Shown here: in pieces, positions 2,407 to 63,349 of the stretch | Layout: every line of letters begins with the position of its first letter | How positions within the stretch are numbered: position 1 is the stretch's first letter | Assembly (NCBI RefSeq): GCF_044704955.1 | Contig: NC_091984.1 | Location: 177,630,001-177,694,000, forward strand | Length of the DNA stretch: 64,000 nucleotides | Source of the DNA: Pristiophorus japonicus | Lineage: Eukaryota | Reading direction: 5' to 3' | Translations under genes and position numbers: made by a program | The notes under the pieces: generated by a model | The model's database searches: none | What the model saw: only the letters and a program-made list of their open reading frames with translations | Told to the model about the DNA's origin: nothing

Positions 2407-4267
2407 CGTAACATTCCTCCCTGATGTTCACTGACAGTGCATCAGCTACCTGCGACATTCCCTCCCTCATGTGCACTGACGTTGTTTCCGCTGCCTGAGG
2501 CATTCCCTCCGTCATGTTTCCGGACAGTGTTCCCATTTCTCATGAGAGTGTTGTTACTTCTCCCATCAGTCCTGATTCCTCATCAGCCACCCCACTGATG
2601 GTGTCCAGGAGTGATCGCGTAAGTTCAATGCTCTCCACATTCATTGCCATCATGTGAACCACATCTGTTAGATCCTGCACCTCAGGAGAGCGCTGTCAAG
2701 CTCTCCTTCCCCTCCTCACTCTGGGTGAGGCTCGCAGCATCCCACTGGGACCCGCAGCCTCGGATGGTGGGGCCCTGGGTGTGTCTCACTCATCCCACTG
2801 GGACCCACAACCTCGGACGGTGGGGCCCTGGGTGTGTCTTGCTGCATCCCACTGGGACCCGCAGCCTAGAATGATGGGGCCTTGGGTGTGCCCCACTGCA
2901 ACCCACTGGAATCCCTAGCCTCGGACTGTGGGAAACCATGGAATGTCCCAGCAACACTCGTACCACTAAGGAAAGGGGCTGGCAGCTCAATGGACGGCAC
3001 CTGCACCTTGTCCAAAGTGAGTACAACAGTGGGGGCGTTATCCATCCCCTCCCCCTCCCCCTCACCCTCATGCTCTTAGTCTGGAAGGTGGGATTGGATG
3101 ATGTTCTCCTCTTCAGGCTCGGCCACGTCTGAATCTTCAGCTGCATCGTCAGGGTTGGCCTCAAGGTTTGCAAAATATAACAGAACAGTTAAATGGTTAG
3201 CAGCAGAGGAGGGGGCAGGGTGGGATGAGTAGGCTCACATAGCGCAGGCAGCAGGCTGATTTGAAGGACCACGATGAATGATAGCACATTGCATCAACCG
3301 AAGCTTGGCTGATGGAGACATCCCCATGAACCGAAGATTGGCTTGCCCCCATAGTACTTAACATTTAGCAAAGCCAGACTGTGCAGACTGTGGGATTTGC
3401 AGGACTTATCCTCTCTCTCGAGCGTGGGCCCAGCTTGTGCAGTGGTGGTTGCTTTTTTCCAGGCAGGACCCATCAAAGCAGCGACCCTCTCTTCCAAGGG
3501 TGTCAGTGGCTGCAGATTTGCCGGGCCTCCTCCTGTTCGAGTTCTTTCCCATTTGTTGTATGCCATCTTCCTCTGCAAAGATGAAAATATAACTTTTTAG
3601 AGAGGGTGTCTTTCTGCTGGGTGGGACATTTACAACTGGTCACATTTACAATTGCAATTCCAGTGAATAAATGAAAATATTACTTACAATAACGACTTGA
3701 GCAAGGTCCTGCCACTTCTTTTTGCCTCCAGACCTTGAGGTGGTCACCATTGCACAGTAATCTTCTGCAAGTTGGCTACAGCATTTCTTCACTTCTTTTG
3801 GTGGAACATTTATGTGACCTCTGCTGGTGTCCAGCTCATGCCATCTGGCCTCAATCGCAATAACTAGTGCCTCCACTTCATCCTGTAAGATATTCTTGGT
3901 CCTTGAGCCGTGTTGCATCTTGTATTGCAGCTCCGATTTTTCCAATGAGAATTAAAGTTTTCACACACAACTGGCGCTTTAAAAATGGCTGAATGCAGAC
4001 TGAGAACTGTACTGGGCATGCGCGTCCATAGGAATAATGTCAAAAACGTCCTTTTTTTTCGTGCATGCGCAGATGGGGGCTGCATCGTTTTTTTCGGCGC
4101 AGACAATAAGCTCCACCCCCCGAAGCTACAGGGCAGGCTGCGCAGCGCCAATTTCAAAAAATAGAATAGGGAAACTTGCTACTTTTTTTCTGGAGTAGTA
4201 GGGGCCAAGAAAAACGGGCGTAACTCTGGCAATACGCCAAAAAAAGGCACTGGGGAAAATTGAGCCC
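2407..4267 (-). mobile_element. Harbinger (PIF/Harbinger) transposon fragment carrying a degraded three-exon Myb/SANT-like gene; truncated on the left by the CR1
   Basis: Minus-strand peptides EVEALVIAIEARWHELDTSRGHINVPPKE..KKWQDL and RKMAYNKWERTRTGGGPANL are paralogous to the Myb gene at 52544. The element ends in the TIR-like ggaaaattgagccc at 4267. Confidence 0.85.
2738..2935. repeat. ~54-bp tandem repeat (about 4 units) in the low-complexity exon of the Harbinger Myb-like gene
   Basis: The motif ca(t/a)cccactgg recurs at 2738, 2791, 2845 and 2899. Confidence 0.85.
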
Positions 4268-8490: not shown

Positions 8491-8944
8491 TAAAATGCAC
8501 TGATTCAATACATTCTTCAGCCCTTTCTGTCTTTTAACAAATAATCAATATTTAAAAGTTCCAATTGCCAATATTCAGCACTTAAAGCTGAATTACCTTC
8601 CCAAACTCAACAAATGGAAACACAGCCTCAGTGCTACCACAAATGGCTCAGCAAGCCAGGGAAGGGGCACTCAGGTTCTCGGACACAGCATTCTAGCTTT
8701 GTGTAGGTGGTCAACACTGCAAAACAGGTCCTCTACCCACAGGGACCAGGAGGCCCCCCAGAAAGAACAATGTGGGAGTACATTACCAAGGCCATCAATG
8801 CCAGCAGTGTCAACCCCACCACCTGGCTCCTGTGCCCAAAGAAGCTCTATGACCTCAGACTAGTCAAGGTCAGTGAATGCATCTTCAAAAGACATCACTT
8901 ACCAACTGAACCACTAGCCTCACACACTGCTCAATGCAAGACCC

Positions 8945-15570: not shown

Positions 15571-15969
15571 CTACACTTGGAGTACTGTGAACAGTTTAGT
15601 CTCCATGATATAAAAAGGATACAAAATGCACTGGAGTGGTGCAAAAAAAGATTTACTAGAATGATACCAGAACTGAGAGGTGATATGTATCAGGAAAGAT
15701 TGAACACGATATGGCTCTTTCCTCGAGGTAGAGGTGTTTATGATTATGATAGGGTAGGTGTAGAGAATCTGTTTCCACTTGCGAGTGACACCAGAACTAG
15801 AAACCATAAATATAAGATAGTCACGAATGAATTCAATAGGCAATTCAGGAAAAATGTCTTCACCCAGAGTAGTTAGAATGTGGAATTGGCAATCACAAGG
15901 AGTAGTTAAGACACATAAAGCATTTAAGGGGAAGCTCGATAAGCACATGAGGGAGAAAGGAATAGGATA
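15571..15969 (+). mobile_element. Older CR1-type 3' fragment, split by the long CR1 (resumes at ~20727-20835)
   Basis: Reads LEYCEQF..FRKNVFTQ. The sequence gggagaaaggaataggat continues as gatatattaatggggttag after 20726, matching copies at ~9375 and ~28420. Confidence 0.7.
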
Positions 15970-16065
15970 GAAACATAGAAACATAGAAAATAGGTGCAGG
16001 AGTAGGCCATTCGGCCCTTCGAGCCTGCACCGCCATTCAATGAGCTCATGGCTGAACATGCAACT

Positions 16066-19057
16066 TCAGTACCCCATTCCTGCTTTCTCGCCATACCCCT
16101 TGATCCCCCTAGTAGTAAGGACTTCATCTAACTCCTTTTTGAATATATTTAGTGAATTGGCCTCAACAACTTTCTGTGGTAGAGAATTCCACAGGTTCAC
16201 CACTCTCTGGGTGAAGAGGTTTCTCCTCATCTCGGTCCTAAATGGCTTACCCCTTATCCTTAGACTGTGACCCTTGGTTCTGGACTTCCCCAACATTGGG
16301 AACATTCTTCCTGCATCTAACCTGTCTGAACCCATCAGAATTTTAAACGTTTCTATGAGGTCCCCTCTCATTCTTCTGAACTCCAGTGAATACAAGCCCA
16401 GTTGATCCAATCTTTCTTGATAGGTCAGTCCCGCCATCCCGGGAATCAGTCTGGTGAACCTTCGCTGTACTCCCTCAATAGCAAGAATGTCCTTCGTCAA
16501 GTTAGAAGACCAAAACTGTACACAATACTCCAGGTGTGGCCTCACCAAGGCCCTGTACAACTGTAGCAACACCTCCCTGCCCCTGTACTCAAATCCCCTC
16601 GCTATGAAGGCCAACATGCCATTTGCTTTCTTAACCGCCTGCTGTACCTGCATGCCAACCTTCAATGACTGATGTACCATGACACCCAGGTCTCGTTGCA
16701 CCTCCCCTTTTCCTAATCTGTCACCATTCAGATAATAGTCTGTCTCTCTGTTTTTACCACCAAAGTGGATAACCTCACATTTATCCACATTATATTTCAT
16801 CTGCCATGCATTTGCCCACTCACCTAACCTATCCAAGTCACTCTGCAGCCTCATAGCATCCTCCTCGCAGCTCACACTGCCACCCAACTTAGTGTCATCC
16901 GCAAATTTGGAGATACTACATTTAATCCCCTCGTCTAAATCATTAATGTACAGTGTAAACAGCTGGGGCCCCAGCACAGAACCTTGCGGTACTCCACTAG
17001 TCACTGCCTACCATTCTGAAAAGTACCCATTTACTCCTACTCTTTGCTTCCTGTCTGACAACCAGTTCTCAATCCACGTCAGCACACTGCACACTACCCC
17101 CAATCCCATGTGCTTTAACTTTGCACATTAATCTCTTGTGTGGGACCTTGTCGAAAGCCTTTTGAAAGTCCAAATATACCACATCAACTGGTTCTCCCTT
17201 GTCCACTCTACTGGAAACATCCTCAAAAAATTCCAGAAGTTGTGTCAAGCATGATTTTCCTTTCACAAATCCATGCTGACTTGGACCTATCATGTCACCT
17301 CTTTCCAAATGCGCTGCTATGACATCCTTAATAATTGATTCCATCATTTTACCCACTACTGAGGTCAGGCTGACCGGTCTACAATTCCCTGTTTTCTCTC
17401 TCCCTCCTTTTTTAAAAAGTGGGGTTACATTGGCTACCCTCCACTCCATAGGAACTGATCCAGAGTCAATGGAATGTTGGAAAATGACTGTCAATGCATC
17501 CGCTATTTCCAAGACCACCTCCTTAAGTACTCTGGGATGCAGTCCATCAGGCCCTTGGGATTTATCGGCATTCAATCCCATCAATTTCCCCAACATAATT
17601 TCCCGACTAATAAGGATTTCCCTCAGTTCCTCCTCCTTACTAGACCCTCTGACCCCATTTATATCCGGAAGGTTGTTTGTGTCCTCCTTAATGAATACCG
17701 AACCAAAGTACTTGTTCAATTGGTCTGCCATTTCTTTGTTCCCCGTTATGACTTCCCCTGATTCTGACTGCAGGGGACCTACGTTTGTCTTTACTAACCT
17801 TTTTCTCTTTACATATCTATAGAAACTTTTGCAATCCGTCTTAATGTTCCCTGCAAGCTTCTTCTCGTACTCCATTTTCCCTGCCCTAATCAAACCCTTT
17901 GTCCTCCTCTGCTGAGTTCTAAATTTCTCCCAGTCCCCGGGTTCACTGCTATTTCTGGCCAATTTGTATGCCACTTCCTTGGCTTTAATACTATCCCTGA
18001 TTTCCCTTGATAGCCACGGTTGAGCCACCTTCCCTTTTTTATGTTTACGCCAGACAGGAATGTACAATTGTTGTAGTTCATCCATGCGGTCTCTAAATGT
18101 CTGCCATTGCCCATCCACAATCAACCCCTTAACTATCATTCGCCAATCTATCCTAGCCAATTCATGCCTCATACCTTCAAAGTTACCCTTCTTTAAGTTC
18201 TGGACCATGGTCTCTGAATTAACTGTTTCATTCTCCATCCTAATGCAGAATTCCACCATATTATGGTCACTCTTCCCCAAGGGGCCTCGCACAACGAGAT
18301 TGCTAATTAATCCTCTCTCATTACACAACACCCAGTCTAAGATGGCCTCCCCCCTAGTTGGTTCCTCGACATATTGGTCTAGAAAACCATCCCTTATGCA
18401 CTCCAGGAAATCCTCCTCCACCGTATTGCTTCCAGTTTGGTTAGCCCAATCTATGTGCATATTAAAGTCATCCATTATAACTGCAGCACCTTTATTGCAT
18501 GCACCCCTAATTACCTGTTTGATGCCCTCCCCAACATTACTATTACTGTTTGGAGGTCTGTACACAACTCCCACTAACGTTTTTTGCCCTTTGGTGTTCT
18601 GCAGCTCTACCCATATAGATTCCACATCATCCAAGCTAATGTCCTTCCTAACTGTTGCATTAATCTCCTCTTTAACCAGCAATGCTACCCCACCTCCTTT
18701 TCCTTTTGTTCTATCCTTCCTGAATGTTGAATACCCCTGGATGTTGAGTTCCCAGCCCTGATCATCCTGGAGCCACATCTCTGTAATCCCAATCCTATCA
18801 TATTTGTTAACATCTATTTGCACAGTTAATTCATCCACTTTATTACGGATACTCCTTGCATTAAGACACAAAGACTTCAGGATTGTTTTTTTAACACCCT
18901 TTGTCCTTTTAGAATTTTGCTGTACAGTGGCCCTTTTTATTCTTTGCCTTGGGTTTCTCTGCCCTCCACTTTTCCTCATCTCCTTTCTGTCTTTTGCTTT
19001 TTTCTCCTTTTTGTTTCCCTCTGTCTCCCTGCATTGGTTCCCATCCCCCTGCCACAT
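16066..19057 (-). pseudogene. CR1 ORF2 (APE endonuclease + reverse transcriptase), broken by a 7-nt duplication and one nonsense codon
   Basis: Forms 662-aa and 312-aa ORFs with LNARS, GVVYRPP, SDHN, PQGS and FADD motifs. gcacact is duplicated at 17082-17095, and there is a TAG near 17009. Confidence 0.93.
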
Positions 19058-20004
19058 TAGTTTAACTCCTCCCCAACAGCACTAGCAAACACTTCCCCTA
19101 GGACATTGGTTCCGGTCCTGCCCAGGTGCAGACCGTCCGGTTTGTACTGGTCCCACCTCCCCCAGAACTGGTTCCAATGCACCAGGAATTTGAATCCCTC
19201 CCTGCTGCACCACTGCTCAAGTCACGTATTCATCTGCGCTATCCTGCAATTCCTACTCTGACTAGCACGTGGCACTGGTAGCAATCCCGAGATTACTACT
19301 TTTGAGGTCCTACTTTTTAATTTAGCTCCTAGCTCCTTAAATTCGTTTCGTCGGACCTCATCCCTTTTTTTAACCTATGTTGTTGGTACCAATGTGCACC
19401 ACGACAACTGGCTGTTCTCCCTCCCTTTTTAGAATGTCCTGCACCCGCTCCGAGACATCCTTGACCCTTGCACCAGGGAGGCAACATACCATCCTGGAGT
19501 CTCGGTTGCGGCCGCAGAAACGCCTATCTATTCCCCTCACAATTGAATCGCCTATCACTATCGCTCTGCACTCTTTTTCCTGCCCTCCTGTGCAGCAGAA
19601 CCAGTCACGGTGCCATGAACTTGGCTGCTGCTGCCCTCCCCTGCTGAGTCATCCCCCTCAACAGTACTCAAAGCAGTGCATCTGCTTTGCAGGGGGATGA
19701 TCACAGAGGACCCCTGCACTACCTTCCTTGTACTACTCTTCCTGCTGGTCTTCCATTCCCTAGCTGGCTGTGGACCCTTCTCCTGCGGTAAGACCAACTC
19801 GCTACACGTGCTACTCACGTCATTCTCAGCATCGTGGATGCTCCAGAGTGAATCCACCCTCAGCTCCAATTCCACAATGCGGTCCGTCAGGAGCTGGAGG
19901 CGGATACACTTCCCGCAGATGTAGTCGTCAGGGACACCAGAAGTGTCCCTGAGTTCCCACATGGTACAGGAGGAGCATATAACGTGACTGAGCTCTCCTG
20001 CCAT
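19057..20004 (-). pseudogene. CR1 ORF1 (zinc finger/leucine zipper + SGNH esterase), frameshifted near 19558
   Basis: CSSC..CGKC followed by L-x6-I-x6-V heptads. Esterase blocks IGDSIVR, CLPGARVKDV and VVVHIGTNNIG. It ends ...GEELN* at 19059-19057. Confidence 0.9.
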
Positions 20005-20169: not shown

Positions 20170-20726
20170 CCACGCCTCTCCACGCACCTCTCGCCAACTC
20201 TGGGCCTCGGATTCCCTGCTGTGCCTTTTATAGGCCTCTCTCCGAAGTCCCGACTGCCTCTCCATGCACCTCTCGCCGACTCTGGGCCCCGGACTCTCTG
20301 CTGTGCCTTTTATAGGCCTCTCTCCGAAGTCCCGACTGCCTCTCCACGCACCTCTCGTCGACTCTGGGCCCCGGACTCCCTGCTGTGCCTTTTATAGGCC
20401 TCTCTCCGAAGTCCCGACTGCCTCTCCACGCACCTACTCGACGCTGGGCCCCGGACTCCCTGCTGTGCCTTTTATAGGCCTCTCTCCGAAGTCCCGACTG
20501 CCTCTCCACGCACCTCCTCGACGCTGGGCCCCGGACTCCCTGCTGTGCCTTTTATAGGCCTCTCTCCGAAGTCCCAACTGCCTCTCCACGCACCTCCTCG
20601 ACGCTGGGCCCCGGCTCCCTGCTGTGCCTTTTATAGGCCTCTCTCTGAAGTCCCGACTGCCTCTCCAAGCACCTCCTCGACGCTGGGCCCTGGACTCCCT
20701 GCTGTGCCTTTTATAGGCCTCTCACC
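20170..20726 (-). repeat. Seven ~80-bp tandem monomers forming the CR1 5' end, each with a TATA-like box
   Basis: gctgtgccttttataggcc recurs at 20218, 20300, 20382, 20462, 20542, 20621 and 20701. Confidence 0.93.
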
Positions 20727-21161
20727 GATATATTAATGGGGGTTAGAAGGGGGAGAAAGTTCATCTGGAGAATAATCACAGCGTGGACTTGTTGGGCTCA
20801 GTGGCCTGTTTCTGAGCTTTGAATACTTTGTAATAATTTGTTGTACTTTGTAATAGAAGTGCTACTCTGAGAGCAATACCACTAGCCTAATGGCATGATC
20901 AAAAATGTTAACTCTGTTTTTATCAACTCTTTGCAGTTAGTTCAATTATGATTTAATGTCACATTAATAATAAATTAAGCATTGATTTTTTTAAAAAACT
21001 GCTTTTGTTTTTAGATCTAAAGATTCGACTTATTACTCGGAAGAAAGGAAGTAAATGTGAAAACATTTCATGGAAATTATCTGGTATTCTGCAGTGATTG
21101 TAAACAGATGATTTGTGTTCCAGAGGGTGGCGCTGATACACAGCAGAACTGAAAATAAGTA

Positions 21162-30008: not shown

Positions 30009-32781
30009 ATGACGGGATCAGTCATGGACAGAAAGCCAACAATAAAAAGTAATGTTGAGCTAGTTTATCAGGAGAGGTTGTCCAAGACACAGAAGAGTTA
30101 AGGGCACAGGCACAGCACGAGGGCGGACCTGCCTCATTTGGGGAGATGTACATTAATGATTTAGACGAGGGGATTAAATGCAGTATCTCCAAATTTGCGG
30201 ATGATACTAAGTTGGGTGGCAGTGTGAGCTGCGAGGAGGATGCTATTAGGCTGCAGAGTGACTTGGATAGGTTAGGTGAGTGGGCAAATGCATGGCAGAT
30301 GAAGTATAATGTGGATAAATGTGAGGTTATCCACTTTGGTGGTAAAAACAGAGAGACAGACTATTATCTGAATGGTGACAGATTAGGAAAAGGGAAGGTG
30401 CAACGAGACCTGGGTGTCATGGTACATCAGTCATTGAAGGTTGGCATGCAGGTACAGCAGGCGGTTAAGAAAGCAAATGGCATGTTGGCCTTCATAGCGA
30501 GGGGATTTGAATACATGGGCAGGGAGGTGTTGCTACAGTTGTACAGGGCCTTGGTGAGGCCACACCTGGAGTATTGTGTACAGTTTTGGTCTCCTAACTT
30601 GAGGAAGGACATTCTTGCTATTGAGGGAGTGCAGCGAAGGTTCACCAGACTGATTCCCGGGATGGCGGGACTGACCTATCAAGAAAGATTGGATCAACTG
30701 GGCTTGTATTCACTGGAGTTCAGAAGAATGAGAGGGGACCTCATAGAAACGTTTAAAATTCTGACGGGTTTAGACAGGTTAGATGCAGAAAGAATGCTCC
30801 CAATGTTGGGGAAGTCCAGAACCAGGGGTCACAGTCTGAGGATAAGGGGTAAGCCATTTAGGACCGAGATGAGGAGAAACTTCTTCACCCAGAGAGTGGT
30901 GAACCTGTGGAATTCTCTACCACAGAAAGTAGTTGAGGCCAATTCACTAAATATATTCAAAAGGGAGTTAGATGAAGTCCTTACTACTCGGGGGATCAAG
31001 GGTTATGGCGAGAAAGCAGGAAGGGGGTACTGAAGTTTCATGTTCAGCCATGAACTCATTGAATGGCGGTGCAGGCTAGAAGGGCTGAATGGCCTGCTCC
31101 TGCACCTATTTTCTATGTTTCTATGTTTCTATGGTGAGAATTACACAGGAGAGAGTAGATAGGGGAGAGTTGAGATCAAAACGGGCAGTTTCGTGGCACT
31201 TAGCGTTTTTTATTGTGCCAGGAGAGATGAGGAATTAATGAGGCAAGACGCCAAAGTGATACAAGATTTGAAAAAATTGCAAGTAAGAGAGATTTAGTTA
31301 AAAGGAAGATTGAAGGTATAAAACAAAAGGAAGAAGGCCTCCAACTTGTGAAGCAGTTAAAAAAGAGGGAGAAATACAGCAGTTAAGACAAGAAATTGGC
31401 CACTGTAACCACAGTATTAAGCAATTAGAAAGAGGGGCCGAAGAGGCAGCTTTACGGGTCAGCAACAAAGTATTTCAAACCGCAGCCATTGTTGAAGCAA
31501 ATGAAAACAAATTAGAGTTAAAAAAATATAAATTGGAAAACTTGAGGCTCCAACAAGAGATAGAAGATGCTAGAACTGCATTAAGAGAAGTCATTAAGAA
31601 GCCACATAGGGAAGCAGAAATAACGAGGCTAAAAAGTAAGTTAGTGGAGCAGCAGGCCCTAGTATCCGCAGTAACACGGGGAGCCATAACAGAGATAGCA
31701 GAAGGGGAAAAGGGAGAAACAGATTGAGAAGAGGAAGGAAGTCAGTATAATTCCCAGGAGAGTGGTGTAGAATGAGATACCTTGGAGACACAAGAGCCAA
31801 CTGTAGCCGTAATAACCACTTCTTCATGACGTAATGCACACGGCAACATCACCAGTAACCATACCGACTCACGGCCCATATCTGGTGCTGACGCCACGCC
31901 GTGTAGCCACGAGTTGGGGCCCATTAATGATGGGGACGACCCACTGGAAGTTAATAGGAGGTGGTCAAATTTTAGGAGGGGTCACCCTGAGTTGGAAGAG
32001 AGAGACTTAACTCGAGTCCTCTTCTTGGCCTGTTCCACTTCACTAAAAGATAATCTGCCAGAAGCAGTACTCCGGGCTGCCGCAGCGGCCGATGTACTCA
32101 TGACCGAGATCCTAAACCATTTAGGGATCCGAAACTTGAACTTAGTGACTCTGCTTAATCAGACCAAGCAGCACCCAGAAGAGACCCCTGGAGCCTTCAG
32201 TAATCACGTGTACGATATCTATAAACGTATGCAGAACCAGGCACCTGCAAATGCTACAGCAAGAAAGAATCAGGAACAATTTAAATCTACGTTCCTGACC
32301 CAACTCCACCCTTTAGTTAAAACCACCCTGGGAATAGCCATGAGGCCCACCAATCAGTGGACAGATATCGAGACCAATGCTCAAATAGCCTGGGAGATGG
32401 TAAAAGACCAGTTAAAGGGGAAGTCACCACCAACTGCAAATAAACCAGTGTCAATGGTGGAGGGATCTCAAAACAACCCCTTTAAAGGGACAATGCTTTA
32501 ATTGTAAGATGGTAGCCCACCTAGCAAAAGATTGCAGCAGACCCAGACCAGCACCGAACCATGATGCAACGCATAAATATCTCCCGAGGGATGAATCCAA
32601 GCCCTGTGGGACAGATCAAAGATTGGATAAATTGATAACCCTTATACAAACCCAAATTGCCACAAATTATTTACTGGTGTACGTAATCAACAATGCACAC
32701 TCATTAGAGACCCATTCCAGGATCGACCCTATGACAGAGTTCGGCCCCCAAAGATTGGTCGGAAGTGGAGTTCCGACGTGA
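30009..32781 (+). pseudogene. gag: gag remnant: N-terminal coiled-coil region, capsid-like domain, CCHC zinc knuckle
   Basis: Coiled-coil-like ENLRLQQEIEDARTALRE..RLKSKLVEQQ; MHR-like TKQHPEETPGAF; C-F-N-C..HLAKDC at ~32495-32535. Interrupted by a CR1. Confidence 0.7.
30147..31132 (+). mobile_element. Young 5'-truncated CR1 nested in the provirus gag region
   Basis: A 295-aa open RT C-terminus nearly identical to 16066-17004; tail ttctatgtttctatgtttctat. Confidence 0.95.
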
Positions 32782-35700
32782 TGGTAGCGGGAGACCAGTA
32801 GTCCTTGTTGTCTTAAAAGGGGGCAGGCATATGCTTATCGATACTGGCTCAGCCGTTACCATCATCCACACCCCATACCCTGAATGCCATGCGGCGGTGG
32901 ACAAGGGTTATATGACTCTTAAAGGGTTTAACGGTGATACAACCACCGCGTATACAGGGAAGGCCACTGAACTTCAGTTGGGAGGCCTCACCTGTAACGT
33001 CCTAGCACCTATGCTGATGACTATCCCGGTCGGAAGGAGAATGTTAGGGACTGATGTGTTGGATCAGTATGGCGCGGTGATCGATTAGAATCAGGACTGT
33101 GTTTGGATGGGATTGGGAGATAAGGCAGGAGTGATAGAAATTTCAGATGCTCACTCGGTTTTTGCTATTAAAAAGCCATCTGAGTACGACGCTCCAGGGA
33201 GCGAAAATGAAGCTGTGGCGAAATTAATTCGGGAACACCTAGCGGTGTTTGCCACATGCAAGCCTGACTGTGGAAAAATGTCAGGCGAGGAATCTATTGA
33301 GGGACCCCTCCACTTATTCACTAAACAGTACCCCATCCCAAGGGAGAGTCACCTTTACATCCGAGATACCACAAAATCCCGAATCGAGCAGGATGTTCTT
33401 AGGACAAGCACTTTCACAACCAAGTCACCTGCATGGCCGGTTAAAAAGCCTGATAGCAGCTGGCGACAGACTATTGATTACAGAAAGTTAAATTCTGTAA
33501 CACCAGCCTGCTCACCGGTAGTAAGAGAAACTCCTACCATATTATCTCAAATTCCTGCCGGTTCCAAATACTTCTCGACCCAGAAGCCGATGGATTCTGG
33601 AGTATCCCTGTTAAAGGGGAAGACCAGTACAAATTTGCATTCGCATTTGAGGACCAGAGCTACACCTGGACATGCTTGCTTCAAAGGTTCCACAATGCCC
33701 CTGCAATTTTAAAAATACTTTTCTCGCCCTACCTGCTTGCTGCAGTATGTAGACGGCCTACTGCTGGCAACCGACAGCATGGAGGAGCATCTGTCGCTTT
33801 TGCACGAACTTTTGACATTGTTGGCTCAGGCAGGACTAAAGGTGAATCTCTGTAAGGCTCAATTAGTAAAAGAACAGGTCACCTTTCTAGGAGTGTCCAT
33901 TTCTCCAGAGGGATCATCATCCCCTGACTCTCACAAAGTGGTGATAATACAGCGACTGTCATTACCCACTTCAAAAACAACCTTACGATCATTCTTGGGT
34001 TTGGTGGGGTACCAAAGGAACTTTATCCCAAGCTTTGCAGAGTGTGCAAAGCCCCTGTATGATTCAATAAAACTGCAGGGTGATGACATACGCCCGGCAT
34101 GGACTGATGCCCACACCCAGTCTGTGGCTAAATTAAAAACTGCAGTGATACAGGCCACATGTCTGATCCCTCCTGACACCATGCAGCCCTTCCATTTGGA
34201 CTCAGGGCCACAGAGCAAAGCATCCCTGCAGTTCTGTGCCAAATGCGAGCTGATCGACGACAGCCCATTGCATACGCGTTTCAAATCCTGCAGGGGGCAG
34301 AAAAGACATATACCGCATGCGAGTGCCACCTACTGGCCGTCTTCTGTCGGTTGATCACTTTACCTTTATTACTGGGCTACAGGCAACAATCCTACACAGT
34401 GGACACACACCTCTGAAACAACTGATGAAACCTGGAGATTCGCTAGTTTCCTCGCAGCGCCTCAGCAAATGGACATTGGAATTTATGGAGACATTGATAC
34501 CATTTCCAAACCCACCACCTTGCTGCCACAATTTCTGATCTATGAGGGGGACCCGCATAAATGTCCGTTACCCTTGAGACCCATCCTGTGCAGAAAGAGC
34601 CCATACAGGATGCCCCAGAGGTCTACATCGATGGGTCCTCATATCACATTGAAGGATCCCCTCACACCGGATATGCTGTGGTATTGCCAGAAAGAACCAT
34701 CCAGCGAAGATGCAACAGACAGTTTTCACAATATGCAGAAAGACTGGGATAAAGTTCCTTTGGTACCCCACCAAACCCAAGAATGATCGTAAGGTTGTTT
34801 TTGAAGTGGGTAATGACAGTCGCTGTATTATCACCACTTTGTGAGAGTCGGGGGATGATGATCCCTCTGGAGAAATGGACACTCCTAGAAAGGTGACCTG
34901 TTCTTTTACTAATTGAGCCTTACAATATGCTGTAAAGGAAACCTTAGATAGACCCTTGAATATTTGGTCTGATAGTGCCTATGCTATAAACACCATGCTC
35001 TCCTTGCCCCATACCACAAAAATGACTATTGTACGATAGATGGCAAGGCCCTGGTCACGCCTGCTCTGGTCATACCTTAAACAGCGATCCCAGCCCTGCT
35101 TCATAGGAAAGGTAGCAGCCCATAGAAAAGGGGGTCCACATAGTGAGGGAAATTCCAGAGCAGCCAAGGATGCAGCGATTGATGGGGAGATAGAGGATAT
35201 AGTTGTTGAGCCCTGCAATGCTGTTAGCAAGGCCTCCCCAACAGATCACCTAGATTTAAAATCCCTGCAGCAGCAATACTGGTCATATGCTGTTGTAAGT
35301 GCCTGGCACGAGGAAGGCAGACCCCTTCCTCAACCAACAGCCTGGGCTCCCAATACCATACTAGCCACCACCCCTGACTCAGATGAGCAGTTGCTGATGT
35401 TCAAAAGAAAGCCAAACACTTTCCCGGTGGTGTGTTCCCCCAGAGGTGGGTCAGTAACTGCATTCCCTCCTCCACTCCCACCCCACAGCAGGGCACTATT
35501 CGGCCCTCGTAACCTTCTATAAGGTAGCATTCACAGCTTGGTGGCCTTCTATGAAGGAAACAATCGACCAATACGTGGCACAATGCCTACCGTGCCTGCA
35601 ACACAATCCTCCAGCATGCACTAACCGAGCCTTGCTTCAAAGCGTACCCCCACCTCAAGGGCCATGGACTCTCCTCCAGATCGACTTAATTGGGCCACTT

Positions 35701-36500
35701 CCATAGGCGCAAGGCTATTTTCAGCATGCCCTAGTGGTGGTGGATCAATTCACTAAATGGATCGAAGCATTCCCCTGCCGCTCCAACATCGCAATCACAG
35801 CAGCCAAAACACTACTGAATCATGTGTTTTGTAGTTGGGGAATACCAGTACAAGTGGACAGTGATCAAGGTTCACACTTTACCGGTAACATTTTTACCCA
35901 TCTGCAGGAAATGTTGGGAATAATACACAAATTACATATTGCTCACCACCCCCAGTCGTCCAGAGGGGTGGAAAGGAGGAACAGGACCCTCAAGTTAATG
36001 TTAAAAAAATTGTGCGTGGACCACCCCACTCAATGAGCTAACATGCTACCAATGTGCTTAATGGCAATGAGGTCCACATCTCTCAGAACAGGGGTCTCCC
36101 CATTTCAGGCCATGACGGGGGAGGCTCATGAGAACAACAGGCCAGCTAACACTAAAGGGATGAGTCCCCTGACAATGAGAACATGTAGTTCCAAGTGGCT
36201 GGAACAAGTGATTGATCTGATCAGTGTGATCTATCGATTTGTGGCCACCAAATTGGGGAAGTCAAAAAGACAAATTAAAAAGTACTTTGACAAGAAAGTG
36301 CGTCCTTTTGAATAAGAGGTGGGAGATTCAGTAATGATTCCAAATTATGGGAAAAAGTATGCTTTTGAGCCCAGGTGATGGGGTCCACATAAGATTATAG
36401 ACCGATTGAATCCCGCGGTTTATTTGATTGAGTTACCGGGAAGAAGGGTGTTAAGTACAAGAAGTGGTTTCACATTAATCAGTTAAAAAGCCAAAGAGTA
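32765..36500 (+). pseudogene. pol: pro-pol remnant: protease, RT, tether, RNase H, integrase
   Basis: Protease LIDTGS. RT SPAWPVKKPDSSWRQTIDYRKLN, GFWSIP and QYVDG (YVDD decayed). Tether HTPL..SSQRLSKW. RNase H VYIDGSS, SDSAYA and KVAAH. Integrase CLPC, QIDLIGP, DSDQGSHF and HPQSSRGVERRNRTLK, plus a GPY/F-like tail. Confidence 0.92.
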
Positions 36501-42499: not shown

Positions 42500-44900
42500 G
42501 GGGGTGGGAGTTGCTGGGGAGGGTTTAAACTAGCTTGGTGGGAGGATGGGAACCTGGACATAGATTCAGAAGGGAAGAGAAGCAAAACTGGAAATGGAAG
42601 GCAGAAAATTAGTAAGTGAGTATGGAAGGCAGAGGAAACAAAGGCTAGAAAATAGACAACAAATGAGTTTGATAGTGCCAAATGGCATATACTTCAACGC
42701 AAGGAGTTTGGTGAGTAAGGCAGATGAGCTGAGGACAGTGGCAGACACATGGAAGTATGATATAATAGCTACTGTATTACTAAAACATGGCTTAAAACAG
42801 GGTTTTCAGATGAAATAAAGAGGGGGATAAAAAAGGAGGAGGGTCGCAATAAAGAAACAATTACAGCTGTGAGGAGGAATGATATTTGAGAAGTATCAAA
42901 TGAGGCCAAATATAATAGTAACATACTGCGGATGCTAGAATCTGAAAAAATAAATCAGAACATGCTGGAAATCTCAGTGGGTCAGGCAGCATCTGGATAG
43001 TAAAACAGCATTAACATTCTGGGTTGACGACCATTCTTCAGAACTTCAATCAAATGAGGCCACATGGGTTGAACTGAAGAATAAAAAAGGGGCAATGACA
43101 CTGCTGCGATTATACTATAGACCCCCGAACAGTCAGAGGCAGATAGAAGAGCAAATATGTAGGCACATTTCTGAAAAGTGCAAGAACAATATGGCACTCA
43201 TAGTAGGGGAATTCAATTACCTAATATTAACTGGGATAGAATCAATGTAAAAGGAATAATGAATGAAGAATCCTTAAATGCATTGAGGAGATTTCTATTA
43301 GCCAGTACGAAGTAAGCCCAACAAGAGAAGGGGCAGTTCTGGACTTAGTTTTAGGAAATGAAGCTGGGGCGCTGGAAGTGGTATCAGTGGGAGAGCATTT
43401 TGGTGGTAGTGATCCTAATTCAGTTAGGTTTATTGTAGCTATGGAAAAGGACATGGAGACTAGGAGTCAAAGTTCTCCATTTGGGGGAAGGCCACTTTTG
43501 CAAAGCTGAAATGTGATTTAGAAAAAGTGGACTGGAAGCAGCTACTTGAAGGTAAATCATTGTCAAAGCAGTGGGAGGCATTCAAGGGGGAAGATAGTGA
43601 GGATTCAGAGCAAACATGTTCCCACAATGAAAAAGGATGGGAGTCCCAAATCTAGAGCCCCTGAATGTCTAGGAGCATACAGGATAGGATATGGAAAAAA
43701 GGGAAGGTTTGTCAGATACCAAGCGTTCAATGCTGAGAAGAGTATAGAAAATGCAGGAGTGAAATTAAAAAGGAAAGTAGGAAAGCAAAGAGAGGACATG
43801 AAATTTTTGTAAAGGATACCCCCAAAATGTGTTATCAATACATAAAGAGCAAGAGAATAACTAAAGGTGGTTTAGGGTCTATTAGAGACCATAAAGGTAA
43901 CCTGTATGTGGAGGCGGAAGTCATGGACATGGTTCTTAATGAATACTTCACGTCTCTCTTCACAAAAGAGTGTGACATTGTAGTTAAGGAGGAGGAGTAT
44001 GAAATAATAGACGAGATAAATGTAGTGAGAGGAAAAACATTACAGTATTTAGCATCCTTGAAAGTAGATAAATCGCATGGAATAAATGAAATATATCCCA
44101 GACTGTTAACGGAAGCAAGGGAGGAAATAGCAGAGGCTCTGTCCATCAATTTCCAATCATCTCTGGCTACTGACATAGTGCTAGAGGATTGGAGGACTGC
44201 TAATATTGTTTTAAAAAGGGAGAAAGGGATAGACGGAGTAATTACAGGCTAGTCAGCCTAACCTTGGTGGTGGGCAATTTATTGCAAAAAAATTCTCAGG
44301 GATAGGATAACTTGTCATTTAAAAAGGCACAGATTAACCAAGGACAGTCAGTATGAATTTGTTAAGCGTCTGACTAACTTGACTGCATACAGTTCTGGTC
44401 ACCACATTACAGGAAAGATGTGATTGCACTGGAGAGGGTACAGAAGAGATTGACGAAGATGTTGCCAGGACTGGAGAATTTTAGCTTTGTGGAAATATTG
44501 GATAGGCTGGAGTTGTTTTCTTTGGAACAGAGGAGGCTGAGAGGAGATTTAATTGAGGTGTATAAAATTCTGAGGGGCCTAGATAGAGTGGATAGTAAAT
44601 ATCCATTTCCCTTAGCAGAAAGGTCAACAACCACCAGGGGGGATATATTTAAAGTAATTAGTAGAAGGATTAGATTGGAGTTGAAGAAAAATCTTTTCAT
44701 CCAGAGGGTGGTCGGGGTCTGGAACTCACTACCTGAAAGGGTGATTGAGGCAGAAACCCTCATCACATTTGGATATGCACCTGAAGTACCATAACCTACA
44801 AGGATACAGACCAAGAGCTGAAAAGTGGGATAAGGCTAAATGACTCTTCTCTGGCCGAATGGCCTCCTTCTGTGCCTTAAACTTCCAGGATTTTATGAAA
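42500..44900 (+). mobile_element. Old CR1 LINE from the ORF1/ORF2 junction to the 3' UTR, with an internal deletion near 44380
   Basis: YFNARSLVSKADEL, YYRPP, LDLVL, LKVDKS and LERVQKRLTKM..QRVVGVWNSLP. Confidence 0.85.
42909..43048 (-). mobile_element. 140-bp Penelope pseudo-LTR/hammerhead-like unit with a 14-bp TSD
   Basis: Homologous to 10900-10995; flanked by atcaaatgaggcca at 42895-42908 and 43049-43062. Confidence 0.75.
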
Positions 44901-49268: not shown

Positions 49269-49716
49269 AGCTCCACTGGTCAGGCCACATAGTCCGCATG
49301 CCAGATACAAGACTCCTAAAGCAAGCATTCTACTCGGAACTCATCCACGGCAAACGAGCCAAAGGCGGGCAGAGGAAACATTACAAGAACACCCTGAAAG
49401 CCTCCCAGATAAAGTGCAACATCAGCACTGACACCTGGGAATCCTTGGCCATAGACAGCCCTAAGTGGAGGAAGTGCATTCGGGAGGGCGCTGAGCTCCT
49501 TGAGCCGAGAGCATGCAGAAATTAAGCGCAGGCAGCGGAAGGAACTTGCGGCAAACCAGGCTCACTGCCCACCCTTTCCCTCAACGACTATCTGTCCGAC
49601 CTGTGACAGAGACAATGGTTCTCGTATTGGACTGTACAGGCACCTAAGAACTCATGCTAAGAGTGGAAGCAAGCCTTCCTCGATTCCGAGGGACTGCCTA
49701 TGCTGATGATGATGAT
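49266..49716 (+). mobile_element. RTE-clade LINE 3' fragment
   Basis: QLHWSGHIVRMPDTRLLKQAFYSEL..GKRAKGGQRK, a C-terminal CPTC..SRIGLYRHLRTH finger and a (tga)n tail. Confidence 0.85.
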
Positions 49717-50973
49717 CTGGTTGGACCATCAGGGAGTGAAATCCTTTTCTGTCACAAAAAAGCTCTGGGTCCTGAGAAGGTGGCCACATGGTGATATGAG
49801 TGCACTGTATTGCTCCCTGCACCTTGGGGAACTTAGCAATGCGGTAAAACGCTCCTGTCCTGTCAGTCTGTGCCTCCGTGGTCATGGGGAAGCGCGTACA
49901 GGGCCTCCGTGACCTGTCTAATGCAGTGATGGGTGGCATGGTGAGAAAGAGGGGAAATCTCGACCGCGGAGGCCCGAAAGGAACCGGACACGTAGAAAGA
50001 CAGTGCCATGGTGACCTTGACCTCGATCAACACTGATGTCTTTGATAGCAGGCTGCATATGTGGCCTGATGAGCTGACATATTTCATTGATCACCATCTT
50101 GTGGAAGCGCAGTCTCCGAAGGCAGGTATGCTCGGACATGTCGAGGTAAGACATCTTTTCCCTGTAAGTGCGGATTGTGTATGGTCTGGTCCTCCCCCTC
50201 ATTCTTGCATGTCTTAAATTGGGCACATAATGATGTGCATCACACATTGAGCAATCTGCACTCTGCAGCATCTGCGTATTAATCGATGCAGGCTGAGAAA
50301 TGGCTGACCCCATTGCAATCAAAGTATAATAGCGATTGATCAGAAGCAATAATTTCCTCACTATAAAATACACCTGGAGTAAACCCCCAATAGTCCAGAG
50401 TCTGAAAATATGTTGAGATGTTCACTTCACCTGAGAAGAACTCCAGATGTCAATCCAAACTCCCCCGAAGTTGAAGCAGCCCTTTGAATGAAGTGACCTG
50501 CGATTTAAAAAATGGCATCCACACCGATGGCTTTAGTTCAGAACAGTTTCACTTCTTCGGGGTGGTTTTTTGAGCAAGCGATATTGTGGGTGATATGTGT
50601 GTGAGGTGGTGAAAACAACGGTGGGTGATCTCCTGTGCATTAGTTTCAGCAAATGTGATCTTTACGACAAAAAAAATGGACTGGCGGTATTGAATCTCGG
50701 TGTTAATTCCGCGCGGATACTAACGTTGGGCGATATTATGGCTGTTGATTTCACCCATTCTGATGATTCTGCCCCAAAAAAGTGGGCGGGCGGTATTTTT
50801 TCCTGACATTATGCACATGGGGAAAGTAACGCTTGGTGATAAGTTTCTGAAAAATGCCCTTCAGTTTCCATTTTGAACTAAATGGGCAATATATGGGCAT
50901 TATACGTAATTTCAGCAGTAAAATGGACATTAAGTGGGTGTTAAGCATGCAAAAAACGTGGAAAATCTAGCCC
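49717..50973 (-). mobile_element. Harbinger fragment: transposase N-terminal half + one TIR
   Basis: YLDMSEHTCLRRLRF, QGAIQCTHI and RKGFHSL; terminus ggaaaatctagccc. Same family as the element starting at 59482. Confidence 0.85.
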
Positions 50974-58719: not shown

Positions 58720-59481
58720 AACTAACATGTTTTGGTGCAGGGGGGAGGACTTTAGATTCCCATGGCATTGGGACCAGTTCTGGAGCAGGAGGGACCTTTT
58801 CAAGGTGGATGGATTGTAACCTGACAGAGCTGGAACAATTGACTTCACGGGAAGGTTAACTAGTACTGGGGGGGGGGGGGGGGGGGTTTAAATAATTTTG
58901 AATTAAGAAACAATAGAGGAACTATTATTAGAGGGTGCATGCTATAGACCACAAAATAGCGCAAGGAGAAAATTTGCTTGCAAATTACAGAAAGATGCAA
59001 GATACAGTGATAATGGGATACTTCAATTATCCTAATATAGACTGGGATAGTAACAATGTAAAGAGTGAATGGGAATTAATTCCTGCAATGTGTAAACGAG
59101 AAATTACTCGATCAGTGTTTTTCCAGTCCAGCGAAGAAGGAAAAAGTGCAGGATCTAGTTCTGGGGAATGAAGTGGGGGAATGTTTAAGTGGGGGAGCAA
59201 TTTGGGAAGAGTGATCATAGTATCAGCAGGTTTACAATAGTAATGGAACAGGACAATGAATAATCAAAAGTAAAAATACTTAACTGGAGGAGGGCTAACT
59301 TCAATGTGTTGAAAAAGTATCTGGCCCAGGTGCATTGGAATAAAAATTGGTAGGCAAAACCATAACTGAACAATGGGAGACCTTCAAAGAGGATATTGTT
59401 TGGGTATAGGATAGACACATTCCCATGATGCTGAAAGGAAGGGCATCCAAAGCTCGAGTTCCCTGGATGACTAAAGATATA
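58720..59481 (+). mobile_element. Old CR1 fragment (ORF1 end + endonuclease), interrupted by a Harbinger
   Basis: Degenerate esterase C-terminus (HWDQFWSRRDLFKVDGL), VIMGYFNYPNIDW and SDH. Confidence 0.75.
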
Positions 59482-59933
59482 GGGCTGGACTTTTCATTTT
59501 TGTACAGATCAGCCAAAAATGGGTGTTATTTCCAGCATGGGTGGTAAAAATGGGTTTTGAGATCGCTGGATTATCGCCTATTTTCTAAACCCTAACTTTC
59601 CATTTTTGAAAATGGGCATTACTGTAAGTGATCAGAAATGGGCGTTAACGTTAAATTTTTTTGACCTTCTGCCATAGTGTCGCCAACCATAGCAACGGCA
59701 TAGCAACACTCATTTCCTGCATTTCAGGAGGTTCGGGGTCATCATTACATTTGCATAAAAGTAGACAGAGAGAGAGAGAGGGAGCAGAGAGGGACTGAAT
59801 GCATATGTGGGTGTGGTGTGTGCTTCTTTGGCTGTTGTGGGTAGCATGAGGGAGATTCACCAGCAGCAAAATGCCTACTAAGCACAAAGAAGGTTGTTGG
59901 CACCGAGTTTTTGTGGGAAAACTAATATTTAAC

Positions 59934-61700
59934 ATGGAAGGGATGGAGGAGGCGACCCAGCACACTGAACATGCTGGCGAAAGCAGAGAGCTGGGAGAGG
60001 AACAATTGGGAGGACACAAAAGAGCAAGGAGGTTCTCGGACGAGGCAAATGCCTCCCTCATGCAGAAGATGGAGTCATGCTGGGGTCAATTGACCCAAGG
60101 AGGGCGTGGGAAGCTCACCCCAAAGGCCTACCAGAAGATATGGGCCGAGATAGCAGAGGTGATCTCGTCGGCGACCAATGAGGTGTGTTAGGGCAACCAA
60201 TGCCGCAACCTTGTCGGATCCGCCAGAGTAAGTATTACATTTATTTACATGTACTTATATATTTATATAATTGGAATTGTAAGTATAATGAGTGATTAAA
60301 ATCAGATGTGATGTCTTGCACTTATACCGGGAAGGTTGTGCTCAAAGCCTGCGGTCATGGTGTACATCTTTAGGTAAAGAATGATTATAATGAAAATTAT
60401 CGTGATTACATCTGTCGGTTATGTGTTGTATCAGTCTCTGTGACAGCACCTAGCAATGATATCATGCAATGGTCTCATGCCATGTCGTGCTGTTGTTACC
60501 CTTTACAGAAGAAGCTTTCGAGGAATAGGGCTGAGCAGAGGCGAACTGCACTCACTGACCTTACCGATATCGAGGAATGGGTGCTGGCAGTAGTGGGGGC
60601 CCACCCATGGTTAGCCACACAAGCAGCAGCAGAGCCTGATGTGATGCCATGTAAGTAAAGTATACATCATTACATGATGTAAAGTCAATAGATGCCACAC
60701 CTACTCATATCCGACCAATATTATATGATAAATAATAATGTCCTCATGAGAATCATTGCAGTGCAGAATGTGGTGCTGGTCATGAAATGTGATGTCTGTG
60801 ATGATCTTGATAGCGGTGTTGCCTTTGTCGTGCATATGCTGTGTGTAACGCTGGACTCACCTTGTGACCCTAGCGCCCCTTTCTCCTCTAATAACCTCAT
60901 TTATAGTTTGCAGCTCAGCCAGCAGCGTAGCCCCATGCAAGAACACCGAGCCCAGAAGGTGGGGGCGCGGAAATGGACACGTCGGACTCTCCTCCATCTG
61001 GTGCTGAGGATCACCAATTCTCACCCGTGCATCTGCTGGGTTCCTTCTCAATGGATGACAGTGCTGACTTTGAACAGCCTGCATCCCCAACCTCCATAAT
61101 CCATTTGTCACTGATGACATCTAGTGCTCCTGTGGCCATTCCCACCTCCACCGTGGAGGTACTGGGCCAAAGCACCTTGCCGCAGAGCACCCCACGTGTC
61201 TCCAGGATGGCGCTGACCAAGCGGAGGTTGGCTCGATGCAGCAGTTCTGCTCCACGAGCGGGAAATCTGAGCGGGGACATGGTACACTTGTCCAGGAGGA
61301 GTGTGGACATAGGTCAGCAGATCCAGCAGACAATGGGAGGTATATCCCTCCAGCTGGCCAGCATGTCCGCCACCATGACGGAGTACGTGCCGCGGATGGT
61401 GGAGGCCCTGGAGCTGATAGCCAGGAACACTGGTGGCAGAGGCTTCCCAGTTGTCATGGAGCGTGGCACTTCACTCCAAGGTGCCACACCCGCAGTGCCA
61501 ACAACACATGAGAGCCAGGAGGAAGATCTTGCTTCTGGCGCAGAGGACATTCCCACCTTGGGACCGTCCTCTCCTGCATCCATCCAAGCAGTGGTTCTGC
61601 CGTCATTCCCCCCAATGAAGCAATGCCTGAGGAGCTTCTCAGCCAGGTGGCTTGGAATCAGGAGGGGAAAGGGTAGAGGTGGGGAGGAGAAGTGGGGGTG
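59934..61700 (+). pseudogene. Harbinger Myb/SANT-like gene (spliced, degraded)
   Basis: KRARRFSDEANASL..W..YQKIWAEIAE; gtaagt donors near 60228 and 60652; Ser/Pro-rich last exon. Confidence 0.75.
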
Positions 61701-62151: not shown

Positions 62152-63349
62152 TCAAGCAAAGCGCTCATATATGAACTGCTGATGTAAGAATCTTGCAGCT
62201 ATGTAGCCACCACGGGCCCTTTTCTGCGATCGAGAGGAGGCCGGGCACATGATTTCAGTGTCAGCCTGATTGTCTGGCCCGAGGTCAGCATCCACCTCCT
62301 CGTCCTCCTCTTCCTCTCTCTCCTGAGGTGGAGCATCAATCCCTTCTGGCAATTCTTGTCCCCTCCTGATAGCCAAGTTGTGCAGTATTGAGCACATCAC
62401 CACGAATTGAGCTACCTGCTCAGAGTGGTATTGGAGCTCAACTCCTGAGTGGTCCAGGCATCTAAAGCATTGCTTTAACACGCCAATGGTTTTCTCGACG
62501 ATATTGTGAGTGGCTCTATGGCTCTCGTATCGCTTCTCTGCTTCAGTGTGGGTGTCACATGGGGGGTCATCAGCCAGGTGGCGAGGCTATATCGTTTGTC
62601 ACCAAGCATCCAGCATTGACCTTGTGGCTGACTGGTAAACATGTCAGATACAGCGCTTTCACGCATTATGTGAGCATCCTGGATGCTACCTGGAAATTTG
62701 GCATTCACTGCCATAATTATTTGCTGGTGGGCGACAATGAGTTGAACATTCAGGGAGTGGAATCCCTTGCAGTTCCTAAAAACCTCTGCATCCTGAAAAG
62801 GTGCCCGCATCACGATATGCATACAGTCTATTGCTCCCTGCACCTTGGGGAAGTTAGCAATTCGGTAGAATCCTAAAACCCTCTCAATCTGAGCCTACCT
62901 GGTCATAGGGAAGCTGATAATGTCCATCCTGTGTGCATAAAGGGCTTCAGTGACCTGTCTAATGCAGCAATGTGGGGCATGCTGAGATATACTGCAAATG
63001 AGACCTGAAAGGAACCCGACGCGTAGAACGAAAGTTCCGCGGTGTCCTTGACCTCGACAGACAGTGCCTTTCTGATGGTGTTGGCAGTCTGCAGATCTCA
63101 CCTGATGAGCTGGCATATCTCACTGATAACATCCTTGTGGAAGCGCAGTCTCCTCAGACAGGTGTTATCAGACAAGTTGAGGTAAGACAGCTTCTCTCTG
63201 TAAGTGCGGGGGGTGTAAGGTCTGGTCCTCCTCATCAGTCTGGCACGTCTTAGATTGCACACATAATACTGTCAAATATATATTCTACCATCTCTAATCT
63301 GCAGCATGTGCGTACTCATCAAGACAGGCTGAGAAATGACAGACACCAT
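62152..63349 (-). pseudogene. Harbinger DDE transposase (HARBI1-like), frameshifted
   Basis: GAIDCMHI, KGFHSLNVQ, PGSIQDA, LGDKRY, LKQCFRCL and CSILHNLA motifs, with an acidic tail. Confidence 0.9.

Follow-up and report, generated by a model that had tools for sequence, protein, structure and literature searches.

A 64,000-nucleotide stretch of the Pristiophorus japonicus genome (NCBI RefSeq assembly GCF_044704955.1, contig NC_091984.1, positions 177,630,001 to 177,694,000 of the forward strand; hereafter the window) contains copies of a CR1 long interspersed element (LINE) whose first open reading frame (ORF1), encoding an SGNH/GDSL esterase, ends in a heptamer of the form X_TTA_AAC, while the second (ORF2), encoding an APE endonuclease and a reverse transcriptase, continues in the -1 frame. 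The comparisons presented here suggest that ORF2 of esterase-type CR1 LINEs is produced by programmed -1 ribosomal frameshifting at this heptamer, as an ORF1-ORF2 fusion, a reading to which we assign a probability of about 0.7. Three things observed directly underlie it: how the junction is laid out, how well its silent positions are conserved, and the fact that several subfamilies have no in-frame AUG ahead of the endonuclease. As judged by sequence comparison, the signal is real, deeply conserved at the nucleotide level and has the anatomy of a -1 frameshift site.

In agreement with the original prediction, which was made from the window alone, in-phase heptamers directly precede the ORF1 stop at 19066-19057, 8350-8341 and 42524-42533, and ORF2 follows in the -1 frame. 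The corresponding ORF1 products end in ASAVGEELN, ASAVGEGLN and GEGLN, each followed by the stop. The peptide KL(M/K/A)W, which had been given as the slip product, is a correct reading of the ORF2 frame, but a tandem slip would yield L-N-L-(I/K/A)-W. The fourth site, described as a decayed tttaaat at 58887, is indeed a decayed junction, although its letters are tttaaa-taa; the linker and the start of the endonuclease appear to be deleted there, and the sequence resumes in what is apparently mid-endonuclease.

A random sample of the genome (60 x 10 kb) gave just 9 junction matches, and targeted searches were hence used. Three DNA searches, four protein searches with queries that stopped before the C-terminal residues, and 60 stretches sampled at regular spacing yielded 269 loci, of which 209 matched the ORF1 C-terminus, 207 were usable and 204 were distinct; 184 of these fell into ten groups (A, B, AB2, C, F, G, D1, D2, E and H) and 20 were excluded. 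TTA AAC followed by TAA or TAG is the majority arrangement in 10/10 groups, which bears out the claim that the junction is kept across subfamilies; TGA is never the majority stop. The majority heptamer is T_TTA_AAC in eight groups and G_TTA_AAC in two, and the 30 copies of group A include 27 with G_TTA_AAC and two with T_TTA_AAC. The word N-TTAAAC is present at 40 places in the window. Those at the junction are not chance occurrences, because they are homologous, fixed at the ORF1 stop and found as T/G_TTA_AAC in 158/184 grouped copies (the others have Leu-Asn in other letters, 8; a changed residue, 13; or gaps, 5).

The junction Leu codon is TTA in 10/10 groups. Six other invariant Leu positions within the last 78 ORF1 codons are written with 2-4 codons each, and TTA accounts for 10/77 Leu codons in these stretches. 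The residue at codon -3 varies (Glu, Gly, Ser or Ala), yet its third letter is T in eight groups and G in two. In the 104 copies retrieved by queries that lacked the junction, the silent sites of the TTA codon differ from the group majority in 1/201 cases (0.5%), compared with 5-6% at other third-position A or T (181/2954) and in other TTAAA words (41/788), and with 2.2% at second positions of invariant residues (34/1556). The constraint on the junction clearly acts on nucleotides, and we read the fixation of its silent sites as selection among source lineages. A constraint at the protein level, in which the ORF1 protein (ORF1p) would need its C-terminal Leu-Asn and the codons would be inherited by descent, agrees with the 32 ORF1p of shark, ray and chimaera type, in which invariant columns are few and include this pair (N without exception, L in 31); a single codon across the ten groups is likewise used for five further invariant residues (Ile, Pro, Phe, His and Thr). 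We nonetheless give this explanation very little credence, as the TTA silent sites are more fixed than the second positions of invariant residues, the Leu-Asn pair lies in a low-confidence tail past the last helix (296-310) of the predicted structure, and a terminal L-N is absent both from 4C1B, the solved esterase, and from the L2-like clade described below.

In every group, a stop lies in the -1 frame 1-5 codons upstream of the heptamer, which makes an upstream start impossible. The frame then stays open for 56-68 codons, as far as the NARS motif of the endonuclease, in the majority sequences of groups A, B, AB2, C, F and D1, where the other two frames contain 1-10 stops; under shuffling, each such stop-free linker has a P of 0.04-0.10. 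The linker shows weak signs of being under coding selection. Of the 153 copies that could be placed, 97 have the endonuclease in the -1 frame (31 and 25 have it in the other frames, and a further 31 copies are not placeable), and this relationship is clear copy by copy in A, B, AB2, C and F. No in-frame ATG precedes the NARS motif in B, F and D1, and an AUG start would therefore lose the first endonuclease motif in these groups. Such codons are present at codon 29 in A, 19 in AB2 and 23 in C; their positions are not homologous, and the one in A, at 18979-18977, is the only group-wide linker ATG of that group. The observation that two of the three window copies lack an in-frame ATG at the junction can be put more strongly than it was, since the ATG of the long copy (within TAATG) is private and 29/30 group-A copies have ATA. 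The frameshift interpretation offered with that observation gains support from the silent-site conservation and from this scarcity of AUG, frameshifting itself being inferred.

Downstream of the heptamer, a GGGG run begins after 7-10 nt in 10/10 groups (G4Hunter 1.16-2.56). A G-quadruplex placed 6-8 nt after UUUAAAC is stated in PMC3919603 to give ~7% frameshifting in vitro, and less with long loops. The G-quadruplex or pseudoknot stimulator suggested earlier finds weak backing; a strong conserved helix or pseudoknot was not found in the ten groups. A predicted hairpin of 4-5 bp with a G-rich loop is limited to A, AB2, C, F and G, five of the six groups of one lineage.

The junction was also followed into other species. 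Among 204 ORF1-like proteins, 121 have a DGLH-type motif 20-45 residues from the end, and a quick tree was calculated from these 121. The vertebrate-type clade, with named members from sharks, rays, a chimaera, a swallow and turtles, has a C-terminal Leu-Asn in 58/61 proteins. The L2-like clade, which has the matching esterase fold, has a slip-compatible C-terminal pair in 0/9. It contains a close relative of the zebrafish L2-type element ZfL2-1, whose esterase (PDB 4C1B) shares the fold, matching the shark ORF1 profile with E 2.6e-36; the clade serves as a natural negative control. In a third clade, presumed to be of invertebrate type, 25/51 proteins end in L-N, G-N or K-N with tails of varying length, and a slip-compatible pair falls within the tail in 43/51 compared with ~16 expected, a count made at the protein level only. 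K-N, F-L, F-F or N-F pairs lie 1-12 residues from the end in P0129, P0134, P0137, P0148, P0153, P0154 and P0156, and likewise in P0158, P0169, P0175, P0186, P0189 and P0191, all of this type. These tail pairs could correspond to slip sites (A_AAA_AAC, U_UUU_UUA-type or A_AAU_UUU) where the overlap is longer. The only locus of the metagenome scan, L270, belongs to an invertebrate-type relative and reads CAG GGA AAC TAC TAG, that is, G_GGA_AAC. No relatives were found in the scans of viral contigs. The 21 loci from prokaryote genomes were all bacterial GDSL proteins of 21-29% identity and were not used, and one shark-type CR1 ORF1 protein deposited as a Pseudomonas aeruginosa SGNH hydrolase (P0008) most likely reflects assembly contamination.

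The junction recurs in published vertebrate consensus sequences. In the consensus table of PMC13343379, for which the first 400 nt of each entry were compared, a motif search, biased by its query, returned 20 rows, of which 17 show this junction by eye (alligator, crocodile, bullfrog, coelacanth, chimaera, stingray, sawfish, catshark, dogfish, bowfin and halosaur). A search through the upstream GLH codons listed 21 rows, and the six that reach the junction all read T_TTA_AAC_TAR. In a search for variant spellings, none of the 22 listed rows has a synonymous-codon junction, 11 further places lying beyond those listed. The original prediction had pointed to synonymous Leu-Asn codons as evidence against slippage; no such use was seen at the junction in the majority sequences of the ten groups or in the consensus rows listed. 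One row of the table, AldAff_Crack-2, from a bony fish and labelled Crack, has an esterase ORF1 end and T_TTA_AAC TAG, and may be a mislabelled or transferred CR1.

Several observations weigh against frameshifting. The ten groups are related to one another and their counts are therefore not independent. The first base of the heptamer (5/101 variant) and its final C (10/101) are not protected above their flanks, and the youngest groups carry G_TTA_AAC, a less perfect slip site. Neither a stable conserved hairpin nor a pseudoknot or shared long-range helix was found in the ten groups, with no hairpin at all in D1, D2, E and H, and the G-tracts are under no extra constraint (32/387 variable, compared with 313/3556 for other linker G). 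In G, D2, E and H, homopolymer runs break the majority line (D2 was open in an earlier grouping), the -1 relationship is not clear copy by copy in the old groups D1 (4/12), E (6/14) and H (0/2), and linker pN/pS (nonsynonymous to synonymous polymorphism) is 0.42-0.79 for the ORF2 frame, no clear reduction relative to the other frames. L270 stops 15 nt past its heptamer, too short a distance to show the ORF2 frame. Finally, UAAUG is found in 14/19 copies of group E and in three shark rows of the PMC13343379 table (ScyCan_CR1-1a, SquAca_CR1-17a and -6c).

The last point is also what would be expected from termination followed by reinitiation, in which ribosomes restart near the ORF1 stop in the -1 frame, at UAAUG or without an AUG as proposed for L1, to make a separate ORF2 protein (ORF2p), with TTTAAAC-TAR acting as a termination/re-entry signal. 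The ORF2 frame opens right by the ORF1 stop, and groups A and AB2 have the near-cognate ATA. SART1 (UAAUG; PMC3894237) and mammalian L1 (reinitiation) likewise have bicistronic RNAs in which ORF2 is entered at or near the ORF1 stop, and L1 ORF2 is described in PMC5009743 as thought to start without dependence on its AUG. The codon overlapping the stop is not conserved, however, being ATA, AAA, GCT, AAT or ATG across the groups and AAA, GCT or AAT in 7/10 of them. A UAAUG stop-start was rejected as a general mechanism, as ATG is the majority in 1/10 groups and occurs in 1/30 copies of the long copy's group; unlike SART1, group E, the one group with this majority, also retains the heptamer. Reinitiation provides no reason for an in-phase X_XXY_YYZ word or for its replacement by G_GGA_AAC in L270, and we consider it unlikely, though deserving of attention.

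Another function at the RNA or DNA level, such as a protein-binding, pause, splice or polymerase-slippage signal, with ORF2 translated by another route such as a spliced or sub-genomic RNA, would fit a constraint that is so clearly nucleotide-level, and AG dinucleotides stand shortly 5' of the site in several groups. Their positions vary by lineage, however, and in B, F and D1 they lead to no AUG; the motif keeps codon phase with the stop despite the varying tail length of the invertebrate-type proteins; and, for polymerase slippage, the TTT and AAA runs are short. Contigs of four sequencing runs provided a weak test of splicing: none of the 15 joints listed, out of 28, is a canonical splice joint leading into the junction. 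Such a function is considered improbable. Natural ORF1-ORF2 fusions were also sought, and two gene-model proteins were found and set aside, one of them from a ray copy in which ORF1 reads through into ORF2 at the junction, a single member that is most likely a decayed copy or a gene-model artefact; long proteins can crowd out relatives in this search, which consequently has little weight.

Under frameshifting, most ribosomes would terminate at the stop and release the 315-aa ORF1p. In a minority, tRNA-Leu and tRNA-Asn would re-pair on the -1 codons in a tandem slip, and these ribosomes would cross the basic linker of 56-68 codons into the endonuclease and reverse transcriptase, yielding ...L-N-L-(I/K/A)-W-Q-G... 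within a fusion of ~1,300 aa, made in a low and constant proportion. Slow termination at the adjoining stop, aided by the G-rich stretch 7-10 nt downstream, is our guess for the pause behind the slip. PMC5009743 counts U_UUA_AAC, G_GGA_AAC and A_AAA_AAC among the most slip-prone heptamers and gives G_UU(A) for equine arteritis virus. According to the same source, retroviral gag-pol and nidoviral ORF1a/1b have the same in-phase shifty heptamer ending the structural ORF, with the polymerase ORF in the -1 frame. CR1 differs from these signals in having the stop right after the heptamer and no strong 3' pseudoknot or stem-loop that we could find, and from retroviruses in being a non-LTR (long terminal repeat) element with no protease for cutting the fusion. 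The stated precedent among non-LTR elements is that of Dictyostelium TRE5-A and TRE3-A, whose ORF2 translation requires a -1 frameshift according to a figure legend in a review (PMC5911963). These elements are also of APE type, belong to another clade with an unrelated ORF1 (PMC5006619), and are compared here through the review's statement only.

A full-text literature search found no description of frameshifting in CR1, although Haas 1997, Kajikawa 1997, Kapitonov and Jurka 2003 or Repbase reports could already mention the overlap. The words 'frameshift', 'overlap', 'start codon' and 'translation' are absent from the main text of PMC13343379, and 'frameshift' from the available text of PMC4120745 and PMC3905857. 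CR1 is not mentioned in the searched part of PMC5009743, which treats LINE ORF2 as a case of unusual initiation, and the searched supplementary file of PMC4316615 has 3' fragments only. How LINE ORF2 is translated is described as an open question in PMC3894237, and the answers known so far all invoke some form of reinitiation. In most vertebrates, the CR1 group supplies the dominant retrotransposons (PMC13343379). If the proposal is correct, the CR1 enzyme would bear the esterase and coiled coil at its N-terminus, the ORF1p:ORF2p ratio would be fixed in the retroviral manner, and the start of the endonuclease would be missing from annotations that place the first codon of ORF2 at a downstream AUG. 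The same comparisons incline us, by a small degree, to a wider proposition: that the dominant LINE of sharks, reptiles and birds makes its reverse transcriptase within a Gag-Pol-like ORF1-ORF2 fusion by a -1 shift, with a signal older than the chimaera-shark-tetrapod splits and with heptamers exchanged (U_UUA_AAC, G_GGA_AAC, probably A_AAA_AAC) in invertebrate relatives, the driver being not a pseudoknot but either the adjoining stop or a natural G-quadruplex.

The features of the CR1 copies in the window are given in Table 1.

Table 1 Coordinates of CR1 features in the window.
Feature	Position	Strand	Remarks
Long CR1 LINE, near full-length	about 20740-15967	-	5' untranslated region (UTR) repeat, ORF1, ORF2, short-repeat tail
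5' UTR tandem repeat	20174..20728	-	80 bp x 6.9; TATAAAA word in every unit
ORF1 (Cys-finger, coiled coil, SGNH/GDSL esterase)	19057..20004	-	
Slippery heptamer G_TTA_AAC	19060..19066	-	final two ORF1 codons (Leu-Asn)
ORF1 stop TAA	19057..19059	-	adjoins heptamer
G-tracts, candidate weak stimulator	19017..19049	-	from 10 nt past heptamer; runs 19049-45, 19042-40, 19029-27, 19019-17
Basic linker, -1 frame open	18863..19059	-	slip site to endonuclease NARS motif (starts 18862)
ORF2 frame (APE endonuclease and reverse transcriptase)	16066..19081	-	opens 5 codons before heptamer
3' UTR	15967..16065	-	ends in short (TTTCTATG)n repeats, near 15990-15967
Second copy, group B, T_TTA_AAC TAA	8341..8350	-	5'-truncated near 8491
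Third copy, group C, T_TTA_AAC TAG	42524..42533	+	
Decayed fourth junction, tttaaa-taa	58887..58895	+	after expanded G run

The Cys-finger/SGNH-esterase ORF1, the APE and reverse transcriptase ORF2 and the short-repeat 3' end are features of the CR1 clade. A 3' end of short tandem repeats instead of poly(A) is characteristic of that clade. The window element shares its ORF1 and ORF2 domains, the coiled coil included, and its short-repeat 3' end with vertebrate CR1 LINEs of type IVB, which have a zinc-finger/leucine-zipper and esterase ORF1 (CR1 subgroup 7 of PMC4120745), and by eye the junction region resembles rows labelled LINE/CR1 in the PMC13343379 table. ORF2 matches PF03372, PF14529 and PF00078 (APE endonuclease and reverse transcriptase). 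In the long copy, ORF1 carries two frame breaks as well as a premature stop, and ORF2 has 670 open codons and one frame break in the 17069-17007 interval. A 315-aa ORF1 that is open throughout, with the Cys finger, the coiled coil and the SGNH esterase (PF13472, E 2.3e-14), is present in a sister copy, L023; among named proteins, those of sharks and rays are most closely related to it, with 91% identity to a Pristiophorus protein. In ORF2 of this copy (L023:2040-3113), ~75 aa of the endonuclease are repeated in an in-frame internal duplication. For the copy at 42524, the subfamily match starts only at ~42512, and hence ~12 nt of ORF1 are left.

The 5' UTR repeat of the long copy, with its TATAAAA words, resembles a repeated internal promoter. 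Splice-donor-like words are located on the minus strand at 20015-20005, just 5' of the ORF1 ATG, and at 20100-20090 in the 5' UTR. CR1 ORF1 is joined to host genes in several ray gene models (P0027, P0053, P0238 and P0239). Young CR1 3' ends of 97% identity are found in opposite orientation ~13 kb apart, at 30059-31033 (+) and 16066-17007 (-).

Other elements in the window include a decayed LTR-type retroelement at ~31300-36050 (+), with gag-like ORFs, an aspartyl protease, a reverse transcriptase/RNase H and an integrase in broken frames. Fragments of a Harbinger-type DDE_Tnp_4 transposase are located at 62152-62894 (-), with similar pieces near 49650-50420. The two ORFs tested at 59850-60191 and 3294-3951 gave no Pfam match; presumably, they may be Myb/SANT-like partner ORFs of the Harbinger-type transposase.

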